Positions 2,970 through 32,191 of a stretch of 32,191 nt of DNA are shown here, in pieces. The DNA lies in the IMG/VR virus record IMGVR_UViG_3300037311_000038, positions 1 through 32,191 of that record. One strand, 5' to 3'. The notes beneath the pieces are model-generated. The model saw only the letters and a list, made by a program, of their open reading frames with translations. It was not told where the DNA came from and did no database searches. Both the position numbers and the translations under genes were made by a program. Each line of letters starts with the position of its first letter. Positions within the stretch are counted from its first letter, which is position 1. This DNA is from a virus. Lineage: Duplodnaviria; Caudoviricetes.

Positions 2970-3228
2970 CAATCACATGGTCGATTTCAACCATGAGCGC
3001 CAGTGCAAACTTAGCTGGATCTGCTTTAATCTCTTCAGGAAGCTTATCTAGCCCCTTCATTCCTTCGCCAGAGAGCGCAGAAAACGTCTCTTGAATGATT
3101 GGCACTACATCGGTGGCTTGAAAACCATCTTTGCTTGCCAAGATCGCAGCCTTTGCAATCTTGCTTAGCATCTTTGCTAGCTCATGCGCTTCTTTGCCAA
3201 GTTCTACTTCGACTTTAACCAATTCCAT
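2959..3228 (-). CDS. Hypothetical phage protein at head of lysis cassette
   Basis: AAGGAGA RBS; amphipathic helical 89 aa. Confidence 0.75.
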   Translation of the reverse strand: MELVKVEVELGKEAHELAKMLSKIAKAAILASKDGFQATDVVPIIQETFSALSGEGMKGLDKLPEEIKADPAKFALALMVEIDHVIDAV

Positions 3229-3252: not shown

Positions 3253-5814
3253 TTAGATTACTGCGGCAACCATATGAGTCAAAAATGGATCAGTTGCATC
3301 CGTTGTTCTAATTGTATCAGCTTCCATCGATAGCTTCTGACCAGTTAGAGCATTTACCTCATATCTATTTAGCATTTGTGGGAAGTTGCCAAGCGGCCTT
3401 GGACGCCCGCCGTTGTATATAGAATTCACAATGCCTTGGTCGATCTTGTAATTTGCCCAAAATACAAGCTGAGCTAGCTTGCCAGCATTAAATGGAATCC
3501 CTGATGACGTATACCTGCCGATATCAAGCACAAATCCGCTATCGGAGCATGGCGTTCCATTAAACTTAGTCTCAACTCCATTTAGCCATATGCTATTAAT
3601 GTTGGTCCCAGAGGTGTCCTCCCAAGCTAAAGCCAAGTGATTCCACCTGCCAACAATAACGCTAGCGGTAGTAATCCCAGTAGTTGAGTTAAAGTTTACT
3701 TGATACCTAGCGGTGGTTGCCTGAATCTCAACATACCAGCCTTGGTTAGATCCGTTTGTCTTGTGCATTAAGATCTGCTGAGAGCCTGGGGTTACATCTA
3801 AATACACCCAGCATGACATCGAGAATCTTCCAGTAGATCCGGACAGTCCGCTATCTGCAGATATGCCTTGAATGCCAGCGTTTGGATGAGAAAAGTAATC
3901 CGAATCACTAAATGGTCCAGCGCCGAATATTCCAGGTAAGAACTCTACCGTCTGGTTTATCGTTCCGTTTGTCGTAAGCGATACGGCACCGCCAATATTT
4001 GATTTGTTATTTCTGGTCCCAATAGCGTTTGTCTTCCCGCCAAGGTTATAGTGAGCAAGTACGTTTTGAACCCTTGGATACTGAAGCCCAGTGTTAATGC
4101 AGTTTCTTTCAATATTTGTTAGCGCTTGAAAGTTCTCGTTTGCAGTAAGCCCTACGCAAGATAGGCGCTCGTTTGATACCTGACGCATTACAATCGTATC
4201 GCCAACGGCAATCCCAGTGTTCGTTCCAGTATTAATAGTTGTCGTGCCGCTAGAATGCGATGAGCTAGACACTGTTAGAGGTAGTAGCCTAGATACGTAT
4301 TGCTCGGAGCTCTCTGGATCGGCAATGGTTTGAAAAACGTCAAATACTCTTCCAGACACAATGTTTGCCGTAGAGTTTGCAGCATCAGATACTTCAATTG
4401 TATCTGAATCTACAACCGCGGTGACCTTAAAGGTCATGTCCGTGCCCCATCCAATAGAGGCCTGAAAATTTGCAGACGATACTGCAGCTGGAAGTATAAC
4501 CGTCTTTCTAGATGTCTGAAGGTCTGCAGCTGCGCCTGAGAGCCCATCAAGCATCTGAGCCTTGTTATCAGATATCAGGTGCGTACTTCTTTGGATCTTA
4601 GAGTTTGCCGTCGTTTTAAATCCTGCCGTATATGCGTTTGATAACCCAGCTGCTAACGTTACTTCGCCTGCCTCTCTTGCAGATGCGCTAGATACAATCA
4701 GTGTCTCAACTGTAGATGAGTTATATATATTTCGTTTATAGGTTTTAATGCCTAGTGATGCAGGGTTTTCACGCGAAAACACAACACCGTCTACAATGAT
4801 TCCTGTGTAGGTTTGCGTTGCAGATGACGTGACAACTCCGACATGAAAGTATCTAAATAGCTTTGATTTATCCCAGCCAGTGCCAAACGTTGTGCCAGCC
4901 GTAGATAGATCAATTCTAATTAGCTGCCAGCCAGTAGCTAGCGCATTACCCTTATGATCAAGCGTTGCCGTGTATGATTGATAGTTAGTACCATCAATAT
5001 CCATGCGCACTTCGACGCTAGATAAGTTTGTCAAGCTTGGAAGGTTGATCCAGAAAAATAGCTCAGTAAAGCCAGCTGCGCTTCTTACAACAGAGCCAGC
5101 ATCGTATCTGATTCTAGCGCTTGTAGCAGAGTTATCTTTGTTAAACTTTAGACCATGAGTGCCGACTCTAAACTCGCCAGCCGTGTTTGTGGCAGTAAGA
5201 CTTGTGGCAGCTGCTTGCGCAGCCCAGTTTGTAGCCGAATCCGTATCCTCATCGCCTGATTCTAAAAACCTTGGATCATGCACCATTACTAGCGCAGTTC
5301 CAGACGTGTAGTTATCCCACACGTAAGATGTTACTTGATCTGCCACACCTACAAAGCTTTGCACTACTGAGTTTGGAACAGGCGCAGAGTATACCCCAAC
5401 CTGCTCGGCAGCGGCCTTTTGTTCGGCAAGATATAGGTTTGCCATGCCGCCAGAGCCGCCCCCTCCTCCGGCAGAGGAATCTAAAATCCATCGACCAGGT
5501 GCTGGCTCTGTAATATCGCTTGGGGTTACCACCTCATCGTCATCGCCTGGCGTAGTAGATGCCGAATCCCAGTAGTAATAGCCTTTTCCGATAACAATAA
5601 AGATTTGATCATCAATGCGGTCTGCGTCCCCTGAATCTAGACCCTTTAGCGCAGTAACGTCAGCTACCGTGCCGCCTACGTTATCTTTTCTGGTATACGT
5701 GTCATCGGCATAGCCCTTGGTTACGACATCTGCATCGTTACTAGGAGTTACCGCAGTTGGCTGAACGCTTGTCTCATACCCAACCACAACATCCACTACT
5801 CTTATGCCGCCCAT
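3253..5814 (-). CDS. Tail fibre / receptor-binding protein with C-terminal LamG (concanavalin A-like) domain
   Basis: Poly-Gly hinge, beta-rich domains, FSMSCWVY...GRWNHLALAW...IWLNG...FNAGKLAQLVFW; last gene of tail module. Confidence 0.78.
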   Translation of the reverse strand: MGGIRVVDVVVGYETSVQPTAVTPSNDADVVTKGYADDTYTRKDNVGGTVADVTALKGLDSGDADRIDDQIFIVIGKGYYYWDSASTTPGDDDEVVTPSDITEPAPGRWILDSSAGGGGGSGGMANLYLAEQKAAAEQVGVYSAPVPNSVVQSFVGVADQVTSYVWDNYTSGTALVMVHDPRFLESGDEDTDSATNWAAQAAATSLTATNTAGEFRVGTHGLKFNKDNSATSARIRYDAGSVVRSAAGFTELFFWINLPSLTNLSSVEVRMDIDGTNYQSYTATLDHKGNALATGWQLIRIDLSTAGTTFGTGWDKSKLFRYFHVGVVTSSATQTYTGIIVDGVVFSRENPASLGIKTYKRNIYNSSTVETLIVSSASAREAGEVTLAAGLSNAYTAGFKTTANSKIQRSTHLISDNKAQMLDGLSGAAADLQTSRKTVILPAAVSSANFQASIGWGTDMTFKVTAVVDSDTIEVSDAANSTANIVSGRVFDVFQTIADPESSEQYVSRLLPLTVSSSSHSSGTTTINTGTNTGIAVGDTIVMRQVSNERLSCVGLTANENFQALTNIERNCINTGLQYPRVQNVLAHYNLGGKTNAIGTRNNKSNIGGAVSLTTNGTINQTVEFLPGIFGAGPFSDSDYFSHPNAGIQGISADSGLSGSTGRFSMSCWVYLDVTPGSQQILMHKTNGSNQGWYVEIQATTARYQVNFNSTTGITTASVIVGRWNHLALAWEDTSGTNINSIWLNGVETKFNGTPCSDSGFVLDIGRYTSSGIPFNAGKLAQLVFWANYKIDQGIVNSIYNGGRPRPLGNFPQMLNRYEVNALTGQKLSMEADTIRTTDATDPFLTHMVAAVI

Positions 5815-19843: not shown

Positions 19844-20041
19844 TTATCCCCTTTTAAGTTTTAACTTTCGATTAGTTTCGATTACTGCGAAATGCTTTTT
19901 CCCATCTGAATACATTGCGACTACTTTAAATGGCGTCTTGATCTGCGCTAGAAGAGCAACAACTGATTCAGCTGTAGGCCCATCTAGCGCTATCAAGTAA
20001 CCCCGACCGCTTAAGTTTGTAGTCAGTACGGGATTAGTCAT
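19844..20041 (-). CDS. Small hypothetical protein
   Basis: Abuts major capsid stop, fills gap. Confidence 0.65.
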   Translation of the reverse strand: MTNPVLTTNLSGRGYLIALDGPTAESVVALLAQIKTPFKVVAMYSDGKKHFAVIETNRKLKLKRG

Positions 20042-20917
20042 TTAGGTGTTGATCACCGTGATGTGCTTCAAAGCGCCTTCAAGGCCAAGCTTTGCACCGC
20101 ACCACATATCAACCGACACAACATAACCGTGCTTCTTTTGAGAATGTTGGTCAGATATCTTAACCATTGGCTCGCCCATAACCAGGTACATAAAGTCAGG
20201 GTGGAAAGCCAAAGCAGCGTCTTGCCCAGAAGTGCCAAGCCCTACAAGAGCCGAGCTGTTATCTTCCAATATCGAAAATCCAAAGCGCTGACGGGCAATT
20301 TGTCCGCCAACTACTGGAGCGTCTGGAACATAGTCGCTGGAGGTCAGCGTCTGAGCATTGAGCAAGTCACTCATGTACTGAGGATCTACCAGCAAGTACC
20401 AGCCAGGCATTTTCGACCATTTAGCTTGAGCTGCAAGCTTCCTTACGTTCAAAAGCGCAGTGGCGTTGAAGTCCGTTACGCTTGTTACCGTATGGTCAGG
20501 AGCAGAAGCCGAAGGAGCTACGAGGCTATAGAGGTAGCTGTTAAGCTCGATCTCCAAAGCTTCGAAGAGCACTTGGCGCATTTTTGGGTTGTCTTGCGAA
20601 ATTTGAGACTGGATATCAACCAAGTCCTCAACTTCGAAAGAAGCCGTGATGCGTTGGTCAGCTACGATGCCGACTCGGCTCGTCTCAAGAGCTGCAGAGT
20701 TAAAGCTCTCAGCGCCTGCGCCTTTTGTTTTACGCTCAGCCAAAGGACGCTTGATCATGCTGACGTATGCAGTGTCGCCGCCGCGCTTGATTACGCCTTC
20801 ATATTCCTTATTAACAAGCGAAGGAAGCAGAGTTTCTTCCTTCAATTGGTCTTGAAGCAAAGGTGCCCAAAACTTTTGTACTTGATCTTCTAACTGTGTG
20901 ACTAAAGTCATGCTCAT
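20042..20917 (-). CDS. Major capsid protein (HK97 fold, P22 gp5-like)
   Basis: VNKEYEGVIKRGGDT, YLLVDPQ, GQIARQRFGFSILE, ALAFHPD, VDMWCGAK; follows scaffold. Confidence 0.88.
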   Translation of the reverse strand: MSMTLVTQLEDQVQKFWAPLLQDQLKEETLLPSLVNKEYEGVIKRGGDTAYVSMIKRPLAERKTKGAGAESFNSAALETSRVGIVADQRITASFEVEDLVDIQSQISQDNPKMRQVLFEALEIELNSYLYSLVAPSASAPDHTVTSVTDFNATALLNVRKLAAQAKWSKMPGWYLLVDPQYMSDLLNAQTLTSSDYVPDAPVVGGQIARQRFGFSILEDNSSALVGLGTSGQDAALAFHPDFMYLVMGEPMVKISDQHSQKKHGYVVSVDMWCGAKLGLEGALKHITVINT

Positions 20918-27507: not shown

Positions 27508-27513
27508 AGAAGT

Positions 27514-27600
27514 TTAGGGAAAGATCCTTAAAATAACGAGAGATCCCAAGATGCCGGATACAAAAAAGATTAAAAACCAGTCATCTTGGGAGAGTTTCAT
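27514..27600 (-). CDS. 28-aa hydrophobic micropeptide
   Basis: MKLSQDDWFLIFFVSGILGSLVILRIFP; ATGA overlap with upstream stop. Confidence 0.45.
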   Translation of the reverse strand: MKLSQDDWFLIFFVSGILGSLVILRIFP

Positions 27601-27755
27601 TTTTTCTTTTTTTTATCTTTAGCGGCTTCTTTTTTGTATTTCTCAGCGCTTGATAGAGCCATAGCAACGGCTTGTTTGCTTGAGATGCCTTTGTTTTTAG
27701 CTTCCGAGATGTTTGACTTAATAACTTTTGGCGATGAGCCAGGCTTTAATGGCAT
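27597..27755 (-). CDS. Small basic phage protein (MPLK-x-G...QAVA-x-AL type)
   Basis: MPLKPGSSPKVIKSNISE...KQAVAMALS; AGGGGA RBS supports start 27755 rather than 27806. Confidence 0.75.
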   Translation of the reverse strand: MPLKPGSSPKVIKSNISEAKNKGISSKQAVAMALSSAEKYKKEAAKDKKKKK

Positions 27756-27819
27756 ACGTGATCCCCTGTTATGTGGATATTTTAAATGTAGATTTGGATT
27801 CTGCACAAGAGAGATTAAG

Positions 27820-27901
27820 AAGCGCCGCCCTTGGCTGTATTATTCTGCAAAGAATATGCGTTTAGACTTCTACAGGAAGGTTCAAGCCGAAGACAGCGCT
27901 T
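27820..27901 (-). ncRNA. Putative structured small RNA, three-way junction
   Basis: 17-bp closing stem AAGCGCUGUCUUCGGCU/AGCCAAGGGCGGCGCUU (3 G-U pairs favour - strand), inner hairpins CUUC/GAAG and UAUUCU/AGAAUA. Confidence 0.65.
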
Positions 27902-27945
27902 GCATAGCGTATACATGATAGGTGGCTTTCCTTAAAGAGAGATTT

Positions 27946-28017
27946 TGGAAGCGCCCCGCAGGATTGAACTGCGATCTAATGGCTAAAGACCATCCGTTTT
28001 GCTTAAACTAGGGCGCT
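27946..28017 (-). tRNA. Atypical tRNA, nominal anticodon UUU (Lys), possibly tRNA-like element
   Basis: Acceptor AGCGCCC/GGGCGCT + T + CCA; T arm CGCAG-TTCAATC-CTGCG; D arm GTTT-AAGCA-AAAC; anticodon arm GATGG-TCTTTAG-CCATT. Confidence 0.78.
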
Positions 28018-28032
28018 ATAGTGCCAAGAGAG

Positions 28033-28126
28033 CCTATTACTTGCGGATCTACTTGGCGGCTGGCCAAAACCGTTTAGATTCAAACTGCCAGGGCCTTTGG
28101 CCAATTAACGCGCATCTAGCAATAGG
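28033..28126 (-). ncRNA. Putative rod-like structured RNA with internal bubble
   Basis: CCUAUUGCU/AGUAAUAGG, UGCG/CGCA, UGGCCAAAG/UUUUGGCCA, apical GUUUG-AAUC-UAAAC; G-U pairs favour - strand. Confidence 0.55.
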
Positions 28127-28165
28127 GTATGGGATGTTTATAGTCTAAACGCAGTAATGATGTGG

Positions 28166-28194
28166 TTGATACGGTGAGTGCCGCTTCGTGTCAA
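28166..28194 (-). promoter_or_regulatory. Sigma70-like promoter driving RNA cassette and downstream genes
   Basis: TTGACA (28194-28189), 17 bp, TATCAA (28171-28166). Confidence 0.55.
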
Positions 28195-28196
28195 TA

Positions 28197-28487
28197 TTAA
28201 AGATTACGGTCTGTGTGAGACAGTTGGCGCAAGATCTCTTTGATATCGCGCTCCATGCTGCGAATGGTGTCTTTAATCTCGCTAATTACAAGATCAAATT
28301 GGCGATGCGAGACGTACTCTTTATGCAAAGAGTTTATGGCGGTTTCGATTGAATCGATTGCCTTATCTAATCTGCCTAGCTCTTCCTGGATTTTGTTTAC
28401 CGTGGCTTTTTGATTGCCCCACTGGAAGGCAAGACCAAGTACGAAGCCTAAGATTCCAAGCGATGCTGCAAGTAAATCACCTTCCAT
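28197..28487 (-). CDS. Membrane-anchored coiled-coil protein
   Basis: N-terminal TM helix, heptad repeats, EYVS.RQF; AGGAGAG RBS. Confidence 0.75.
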   Translation of the reverse strand: MEGDLLAASLGILGFVLGLAFQWGNQKATVNKIQEELGRLDKAIDSIETAINSLHKEYVSHRQFDLVISEIKDTIRSMERDIKEILRQLSHTDRNL

Positions 28488-29370: not shown

Positions 29371-29907
29371 TTAAATGGTCAAAGTGCCAATTGTTATGGT
29401 CATATCAAGAGCTGACATTATGTCAGTACCCACTGAATGGGCGCTCTTTAGGCGATTAAAGATAGTTGGCGGAGATACGCCAAGCTCTCTTGCGATCTCG
29501 CAGTTATTTAATCCATATACATGTTTTAGATAGAAAATGTTTTCTTCCTCACTGCTCATAAGCCCAAGCCTTGAATATAATTTATTTATATCGATTGGCT
29601 CTTTTTTTACCTCTGGCTCTTCTGACTCTATTAAAGAGCTCTCGGCGGTTATGTTGTCTGTTACCCGCTCTGTAAAGGATGAGAAGCTATCGTCCTCATC
29701 TTTTATCAGTTGTGAATCTGATACTTCTGCAAAGTAGGCATTTAATGATAGCCGCCTTGCAATGATAGTTCGAAGGTTATGCTCTGATAGCCTGGTGATG
29801 TCTTGCTCTATTGCAATTAGATAGAGTTCAGAGAGCGCCTCATCTTTAGGGATTAGTAGCTTTTGAGATATTGGGGTGGCGAGCTTTTCTAGCGCTTTTA
29901 GATCCAT
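29371..29907 (-). CDS. Sigma70 region 4-like HTH transcription regulator
   Basis: MSSEEENIFYLKHVYGLNNCEIARELGVSPPTIFNRLKSA. Confidence 0.78.
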   Translation of the reverse strand: MDLKALEKLATPISQKLLIPKDEALSELYLIAIEQDITRLSEHNLRTIIARRLSLNAYFAEVSDSQLIKDEDDSFSSFTERVTDNITAESSLIESEEPEVKKEPIDINKLYSRLGLMSSEEENIFYLKHVYGLNNCEIARELGVSPPTIFNRLKSAHSVGTDIMSALDMTITIGTLTI

Positions 29908-31596: not shown

Positions 31597-32191
31597 TTTC
31601 TCTCTTTCTGGCGAGATTTTCTAACACCTGGTTCCTTGCATTGGTATTTGCTTGATAAAGCTCTGCTTCCTTCGCTTCACTCAATAAAATCGGCCGGCCG
31701 ATACGCCACTGGGTATGAAGACCTTCGGCGTTGGCTAGTAAAAGCCCAACGCTGTGCTGTGATGCTATGTAATTACTGCCACGATGCGTCAAGTAGAAAC
31801 TTGCAACATCTGGAGCATTGGGACCTAGTCGCTTTACAAGCTGGGCAATTTGAGAGTTCACCTTTGCATTCCTAGGAGGGCTTACGCCGTATCTGACCAT
31901 AAAAGCCTCTTGGTAGGCTTCCCAGGTTTTTGCATTTAATTCTTTCTCCCCAGATTGGGATGGAGAATCCATTGGTACCGAAGCCGATGAGGCTTCGGTA
32001 AAAGCTTGTCCGTCTTGTTCGTCACGTTTCGTAACGTGCTCGTTGTTAAACGTTTCGTTACGTCCGTTACGTTCGTTACGTAACGTATCGTTCGTACGTT
32101 CGTTCGTAGCGGCCAATTTATGCACGCGCACGTTACGTTTATGCACGCGCACGTTACGTGCACGTGCAGATCGGAACGTAAGTAGCTGTTT
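31583..32191 (-). CDS. Replisome organizer, C-terminal part (start is at 552 across the junction)
   Basis: TWEAYQEAFMVRYGVSPPRNAKVN..I..LVKRLG...FYL...H.VGLLL..AEGL. Confidence 0.8.
   Translation of the reverse strand, partial: KQLLTFRSARARNVRVHKRNVRVHKLAATNERTNDTLRNERNGRNETFNNEHVTKRDEQDGQAFTEASSASVPMDSPSQSGEKELNAKTWEAYQEAFMVRYGVSPPRNAKVNSQIAQLVKRLGPNAPDVASFYLTHRGSNYIASQHSVGLLLANAEGLHTQWRIGRPILLSEAKEAELYQANTNARNQVLENLARKRENEQT
31970..32191 (+). repeat. Terminal direct repeat, right copy, with 9-bp insertion
   Basis: Identical to 1-213 apart from cgtccgtta at about 32061-32069. Confidence 0.97.

Follow-up and report, generated by a model that had tools for sequence, protein, structure and literature searches.

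The window analyzed here, a stretch of 32,191 nucleotides, probably represents a complete circular genome, since its ends share an overlap of ~220 bases. This terminal overlap (positions 1-213 versus 31970-32191) lies within the replication gene and shows a difference of one 9-base repeat unit. The one DNA run examined, from which the record probably derives, contained no sequence variants. Comparison of 47 ORFs with the PHROGs identified a tailed phage, in which terminase, portal, capsid, tape measure and endolysin are all encoded on the - strand. A replication block, encoding a DnaD-like loader, SSB and RusA, precedes the structural genes. The element discussed here sits between this block, together with a gene for a sigma-70 region 4 protein, and the terminase genes terS and terL; read from the sequence, the order is RusA, promoter, small genes, hairpin, terS, terL. 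In lambdoid phages, the same position is that of pR' (PMC7547250). Among the terL loci retrieved from a genome collection, 3 of 19 were located in MAGs labeled as Bdellovibrionota, and the others were scattered.

The first gene after the hairpin (27597-27755, - strand) encodes a protein of 52 aa (phrog_2423) and also follows the hairpin in L003, the one close relative that was found. Downstream of it are small ORFs, a methyltransferase gene, terS, terL and the portal and capsid genes. An ORF for a membrane-anchored coiled-coil protein of 96 aa (28197-28487, - strand) is located upstream of the promoter in the window and between leader and hairpin in L003. The phage had been described earlier as one without a visible protein repressor. 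Consistently, no repressor or integrase family was found among the 47 ORFs with the PHROGs, but an HTH protein with a sigma-70 region 4 (PF08281, E 1.3e-6) is encoded upstream (29371-29907, - strand). The phage is thus not free of protein regulators. This protein also weakly matches the Q antiterminators (PF06530, E 0.012, below cut-off) and is a candidate late activator or antiterminator.

Structured segments were also observed elsewhere in the window. At 604-720 on the + strand, a promoter-like site (604) is followed by a two-hairpin RNA of ~80 nt with a very strong terminator (z -9.1). This RNA is antisense to the leader of the replication gene (690-588, - strand), whose promoter-like site (690, - strand) lies inside the hairpin, and the layout is that of plasmid ctRNAs. 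With Rfam, ctRNA_pND324 was matched at 637-720, far below the cut-off (17.4 bits, E 4.9). A very stable structure (19920-20045, - strand; z -7.3) lies directly 3' of the stop codon of the major capsid gene and overlaps an ORF of 65 aa; possibly, it is a readthrough, frameshift or stabilizing element. Finally, a stable hairpin (27510-27605, - strand; z -4.6) is found within an ORF for a hydrophobic peptide of 28 aa after the gene for the 52-aa protein.

Predicted promoter, leader box and hairpin RNA

A TTGACA-17-TATCAA promoter is predicted on the - strand at 28194-28166, where the original prediction had it, and a homologous site is present at 900-928 in L003. It is likely a late (pR'-like) promoter. 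Its -10 hexamer lacks the final T, and the site is missing from the output of a consensus promoter scan. Promoters whose -10 has no final T are common in some bacteria, and this T is also absent from three of the four promoter-like sites in the divergent control region at 560-830. The pattern TTGA[CT][ACT]-17-TAT[AC] has a single match on the - strand of the window (0.44 expected), and its only occurrences in L003 (0.35 expected) are those preceding the leader (900) and the hairpin (1926); because the pattern was derived from these very sites, the counts are descriptive. A loose promoter census of nine intergenic windows yielded no further site. The region behind the promoter was said to contain no credible ORF, which is borne out: two ORFs of 33 aa are the only ones inside it on the - strand, and a ribosome-binding site was seen before neither.

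At about +7 to +18 of the predicted transcript lies a leader box of 12 nt (28153-28142, - strand). The proposed folding of the leader on itself was recovered as a weak hairpin (28150-28136, - strand; -2.3 kcal/mol, z -1.8). The perfect 12-nt complementarity between the leader box and a downstream anti-box (27868-27857, - strand) was found exactly as predicted. The anti-box is contained within the predicted antisense effector, a hairpin RNA of about 82 nt (27901-27820, - strand) followed by a U-rich tail, the pyrimidine-rich segment at 27819-27806. This RNA had been drawn as a three-way junction, a fold that was not upheld, as it is 1 kcal/mol above the minimum and each of its inner hairpins has a pair probability of only ~2%; the first inner stem is, moreover, absent from L003. 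Instead, the ensemble prefers a single irregular hairpin, whose tip, a predicted apical loop, leaves most of the anti-box unpaired, the unpaired probability being 0.5-0.99 at 10 of the 12 positions.

The folding stability of the cassette is modest and unexceptional genome-wide. For the hairpin, a z-score of -2.9 was obtained with hand-picked ends and -1.9 with flanks, and in fixed 90-nt windows it reached -2.9, the 5% quantile of 120 random windows being -3.2. No window of the cassette was among the top 20 of 1071 in a genome-wide z-scan, which is noisy because it used 12 shuffles per window, and a consensus terminator scan listed neither the hairpin nor the rod-like structure discussed below. 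The hairpin of the window has only a poor promoter-like site (TTTAAG-17-TATACG, seen by eye), which fails even the loose census, and the RNA may therefore be trimmed from a longer transcript. The tail of the hairpin pairs with the ribosome-binding site that comes next no better than shuffled sequences do (about 300 of 500). The sequence CTCTCTT follows the rod, the tRNA and the hairpin alike (28032, 27944 and 27816, - strand), and the 3' ends of the tRNA and the hairpin have 8 nt in common; these repeats may be a processing signal or the trace of a duplication.

How much weight the complementarity can bear depends on its expected frequency. When the 366-nt region was shuffled 4000 times, 0.4% of the shuffled sequences contained a non-overlapping perfect complement of at least 12 nt. 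The whole window contains 78 perfect 12-mer inverted pairs, overlapping palindromes included, and about 0.6 12-mer pairs within 300 nt are expected arithmetically somewhere in a 32-kb genome; thus, the complementarity alone is weak, and one genome alone is insufficient. Of all potential targets of the hairpin loop, the leader ranks first both in the whole window and in the 11 kb of L003, and the predicted net binding after opening of both RNAs amounts to -13.1 kcal/mol in the window and -8.9 kcal/mol in L003. The divergent operon (ORF 818) also has a copy of the box, with one mismatch, in its leader (786-795, + strand). With a net binding of -5.2 kcal/mol, it is outside the 12 best targets of the hairpin loop, and it is possibly a weak second target.

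Leader and hairpin in the relative L003

The terminase (terL) of L003 is 81% identical to that of the window, and the two genomes are syntenic. The 160-bp gap of L003 equivalent to the region of the window contains no rod, no tRNA and one hairpin (1961-2026; z -3.4) with the same core, a T6 tail and a closing stem of different sequence; the closing stems of the two hairpins do not align in register. The promoter-leader module is located 1 kb upstream, directly behind RusA, with four small ORFs in between. The three-RNA cassette that had been proposed is thus not conserved as such: as rod and tRNA are absent from L003, the conserved unit consists of two parts rather than three RNAs. A promoter-like site (1926) precedes the L003 hairpin, and its predicted start coincides with the first base of the stem. 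Processing from one transcript, as originally envisaged, is not supported as the sole route to this RNA. The L003 leader contains two hairpins, 973-1011 and 1034-1066, the second with a U-rich tail, followed by an ORF for a hydrophobic peptide of 32 aa.

The predicted pairing of the leader with a downstream RNA fared better in this one relative, where both boxes were kept and had changed together. The L003 box (942-954), which has the same spacing from the promoter as that of the window, and its anti-box (1982-1994) match perfectly over 13 nt, and the anti-box is again positioned in the predicted apical loop. The leader cores and the hairpin cores of the two genomes align, with 9 nt common to both. 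Three further matched positions in the window and four in L003 flank this core; they agree within each genome and differ between the genomes, so that the Watson-Crick match across genomes is limited to the core. The calculated duplex energies are -18.7 and -20.1 kcal/mol for the cognate pairs versus -13.7 and -16.2 kcal/mol for the crossed pairs, those involving the L003 leader including extra pairs outside the box. In addition, box copies in sense orientation follow promoter-like sites, and those in antisense orientation occur solely within hairpins. Judged by these comparisons, the two-part element of a promoter with leader box and a hairpin that presents the anti-box in its loop is real and conserved.

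According to a more trivial explanation, the locus is no more than a normal late-promoter region that holds a cargo tRNA and a terminator with a large loop, and the inverted match is a functionless relic of a local duplication or a product of chance. The expected number of such pairs per genome given above, the modest folding scores and the lack of conservation of rod and tRNA would all fit. Yet, the match persists in L003 with the boxes 1040 nt apart and four ORFs between them, even though the whole 441-nt region of the window gave no BLAST match to L003. A 13-nt match arose at any place in 3.6% of 1000 shuffles of the L003 stretch, but the real one is on the homologous core. This explanation is very unlikely and the least likely of the rivals considered.

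Alternatively, the 9-nt core could be a DNA operator for a phage protein, situated shortly downstream of several promoters or inside them, in which case the complementarity at the RNA level is only apparent. Indeed, core copies are found near promoter-like sites at +7 (28153) and 786 (+ strand) in the window and at 918 (inside the promoter), 943 and 1985 in L003. Furthermore, the copy in the L003 hairpin forms a perfect palindrome of 14 bp, 13 nt separate the end of a + strand promoter-like site in the window (27815-27843) from the box that follows it, and the HTH protein is encoded nearby. However, the spacing of the half-sites varies from 0 to 2 among the copies, the + strand promoter was not seen at the matching place in L003, and the seven flanking positions that match within each genome do not match across. 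Besides, the placement of inverted copies at hairpin tips is not required for an operator. An operator is considered an unlikely explanation.

The covariation between the boxes rests on a single comparison, because L003 was the only homologue found in all scans of the sequence collections. A terL search returned two loci, L003 and L002, the latter on a contig without upstream DNA. A broad terL alignment yielded 80 viral and 19 genome loci, an alignment of the close clade gave no loci in the metagenomes, and a search with a neighboring protein of 75 aa retrieved the L003 contig alone. Closer terL relatives (70-84%) are P0005 and P0007-P0009; the comparison of the boxes covers the DNA of the window and L003. 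Among 98 terL loci, L003 alone had the 9-nt core in both orientations; since many terL contigs end before the region, a missing core in these is not evidence of absence. Pattern scans gave a similar picture. The 119 loci of one scan showed no similarity past the pattern, with the 8-nt box nearby in one of them. Two further scans yielded one locus, i.e., the L003 contig, and six loci, i.e., the same contig and five without anti-box, and neither box nor protein similarity was present in any of the 14 loci of another scan. Of 128 pattern loci, 16 of which possibly have short flanks, 20 had an 8-nt anti-core on the same strand, and placement in a hairpin loop was restricted to the L003 contig. No match to the element was found in annotated phages.

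A similar layout with other sequences was also sought. In 99 loci, i.e., the window, L003 and 97 more distant terL loci, 31 non-coding perfect inverted pairs of at least 11 nt were found, and a promoter-like site before the first copy was present in three of them: the window, L003 and L194. Among the 14 of the other 28 pairs that were inspected, one (L204) also touches a loop. L194, whose terminase identity is 42%, has the same layout with unrelated sequence: a promoter and a box over the ribosome-binding site of a RecT-family gene (3021-3069) are followed 1 kb downstream (4093-4180) by a hairpin with a 13-nt complement at its tip and then a terminator-like stem. The 11-nt box is also found ahead of a second gene. 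Because the sequence is unrelated and partly plain anti-Shine-Dalgarno, L194 is an analogue at most. Two unrelated viral contigs, L247 (3001-3200) and L253, contain a 15-bp inverted repeat 120 nt apart that holds the 11 bases of the box, in a long non-coding stretch without Rfam match; this is probably a coincidence of the pattern search.

Rod and tRNA of the window

The rod-like structure (28126-28033, - strand; MFE -34.3) is a candidate attenuator of the leader in the window genome only. Its z-score was -3.6 with hand-picked ends, -1.7 with flanks and about 0 in fixed 90-nt windows. The second copy of the 8-nt anti-box core that had been reported in it is present (28078-28071, - strand), at the tip of the rod; it is mostly paired, and its net binding to the leader is just -0.6 kcal/mol.

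Folding of the growing transcript suggests another connection between leader and rod. At most lengths between 50 and 120 nt, about 8-9 pairs are predicted between a free box and the rod's 5' arm (28119-28111). The expected number of basal pairs of the rod at 140 nt is 14.6 when the box is blocked versus 4.6 when it is free, and a free box does not keep the rod from closing fully at 130 nt. The match with the arm exceeds that expected from shuffling the 44-nt arm region (35 of 2000), but not that from shuffling the whole rod (258 of 2000). Thus, in the folding model of the window, a free box would capture the 5' arm during elongation, and blocking of the box would let the rod close, resulting in an attenuation switch. 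The tail of the rod is U-poor, with four U in eight. Attenuator-type alternative folds of the leader were predicted in the window and not in L003. There, the terminator-like hairpin at 1034-1066 forms in the model with the box blocked or free, and its inner complement is marginal (92 of 2000 shuffles). The rod switch is, by these predictions, not conserved.

The tRNA postulated at 28017-27946 (- strand) was confirmed with ARAGORN and Rfam (tRNA, 47 bits versus a cut-off of 29, E 4.7e-9) as a tRNA-Lys(UUU)-like gene with cloverleaf, T-loop and encoded CCA. It is atypical in having C33, U73, A1-U72 and a 5-nt D loop. U33 and the Lys discriminator base are canonical features of tRNA-Lys, and both are missing here. 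The tRNA is likely cargo inserted behind the promoter, and it may be a nuclease-resistant or non-decoding variant.

Comparison with known systems and predicted function

The CI RNA of phage P4 causes premature termination by pairing with the leader (PMC4825925; PMC3632133). As for CI (seqA/seqC) and its homologs C4 and IsrK, a downstream RNA of the same unit is complementary to an upstream leader box in both genomes studied here. In contrast to these RNAs, there is one irregular hairpin instead of a multi-stem RNA, with one box of 12-13 nt; a separate promoter-like site precedes the hairpin in L003, and the hairpin lies ahead of packaging genes rather than replication or antirepressor genes. 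C4 and CI have a multi-stem fold, and their processing from the primary transcript includes an RNase P step. Also, unlike the seqC arrangement of CI, neither genome has, on the transcribed strand, a box copy with at most one mismatch in the interval from the hairpin to terL. No C4 or IsrK match was returned by Rfam in the whole window (E<=5) or at 27780-28220 (E<=10), where the tRNA and a chance match to CrcZ were listed, and the three matches in L003 (880-2100) were sub-threshold and unrelated. Thus, the hairpin-leader element has a layout like that of CI and C4 and is unrelated in sequence, and it differs from this family in model match, fold, second target and the genes controlled. As an RNA switch of CI/C4 logic ahead of the late genes, the original prediction stands insofar as the paired boxes were kept in L003, while the three-RNA cassette and the junction fold do not.

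Other systems share single aspects of the element. The antisense RNA C4 of P1/P7 (immI) originates inside the very operon that it regulates (PMC8198154). Similarly, the hairpin RNA is encoded within its predicted target operon, but in the window no family of C1-type repressors or antirepressors was found, C4 is matched neither in sequence nor by model, and no ORF resembling icd and equipped with a ribosome-binding site is located at the box. RNAIII of pIP501 (pT181-type) induces premature termination by binding to the nascent leader (PMC4981023), which resembles the predicted box-rod switch. However, RNAIII is encoded on the opposite strand of its target, whereas the hairpin is on the same strand, 285 nt (window) and 1040 nt (L003) away, and the complementarity is 12-13 nt. 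In Vibrio cholerae, OppZ and CarZ, derived from 3' ends, pair with their own upstream transcript in a negative feedback (PMC7398697). The hairpin RNA, too, comes from the downstream part of a unit and matches its own upstream transcript. Where OppZ and CarZ block translation at ribosome-binding sites, however, the leader box sits at the beginning of an untranslated leader, remote from a start codon. In the literature searched, mainly the main text of open-access articles, an antisense RNA that is encoded on the same strand as a phage late leader and acts on it was not described.

The pR' region of lambdoid phages offers another parallel, as it includes StxS, the anti-sRNAs AgvB and AsxR, and tRNA morons (PMC4104026; PMC7547250). 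Like this region, the element lies behind RusA and a Q-like gene and ahead of the terminase, with a short leader RNA and with small RNAs and cargo downstream. Whereas the lambdoid RNAs are described in these sources as acting on host RNAs or stx1 mRNA, here the pR'-like leader itself is the predicted target. The parallel also raises the possibility that the roles are different: the leader transcript could be the active sRNA with the hairpin as its sponge, or pairing could open the leader and activate the late genes. The pairing evidence fits these options equally well, and an invariant 9-nt core with changing flanks would be expected if a target outside the element constrains the core. Precedents are the anti-sRNAs downstream of pR' in lambdoid prophages (PMC4104026), the pR' leader that is itself an sRNA, StxS (PMC7547250), and IsrK, which activates its operon (PMC4825925). 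Still, none of 401 genomes from the phylum of one Bdellovibrio-labeled MAG contained the core pattern of the hairpin, with three short matches only, and folding of the window points to closure of the rod, not opening, when the box is bound. Such different roles are distinctly unlikely.

The element is most likely, as far as sequence and folding predictions can tell, an antisense control of the late transcript. In the explanation to which we give about half of our confidence, the hairpin (27901-27820) would be a small antisense RNA on the late pR'-like leader that dampens read-through into the terminase and structural genes. Through its predicted apical loop, it would bind the complementary box of the leader transcribed from the presumed late promoter at 28194. 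The hairpin RNA itself would be made from its own promoter in L003 and, in the window, by co-transcription and trimming or from a weak promoter. Pairing would then lead to repression rather than activation, and the sigma-70 region 4 protein may override this brake late in infection. The likeness to attenuation has to be weighed against the U-poor tail of the rod and the L003 hairpin that is indifferent to the box; hence, RNA-RNA pairing of some kind is fairly probable, while the balance is even as to whether it represses late read-through.

A broader scenario is improbable at present. In this phage group, RNA may replace the protein repressor circuit: the hairpin would set the late promoter by antisense attenuation and a second, counter-transcribed RNA (about 637-715) would control the replication gene, allowing an integrase-free, plasmid-like dormancy, with relatives such as L194 reusing the layout with other boxes.

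Late genes of the lambdoid type are gated by protein antiterminators or activators, and RNAs of the CI/C4 class gate replication or antirepressor genes. If the proposed explanation is true, RNA feedback would be extended to the packaging operon by an unrelated small RNA acting on a late leader. The two natural alleles, with boxes of 12 and 13 nt and different flanks, constitute a ready-made test of specificity, and, given their difference, cross-immunity between close relatives could be no more than partial.
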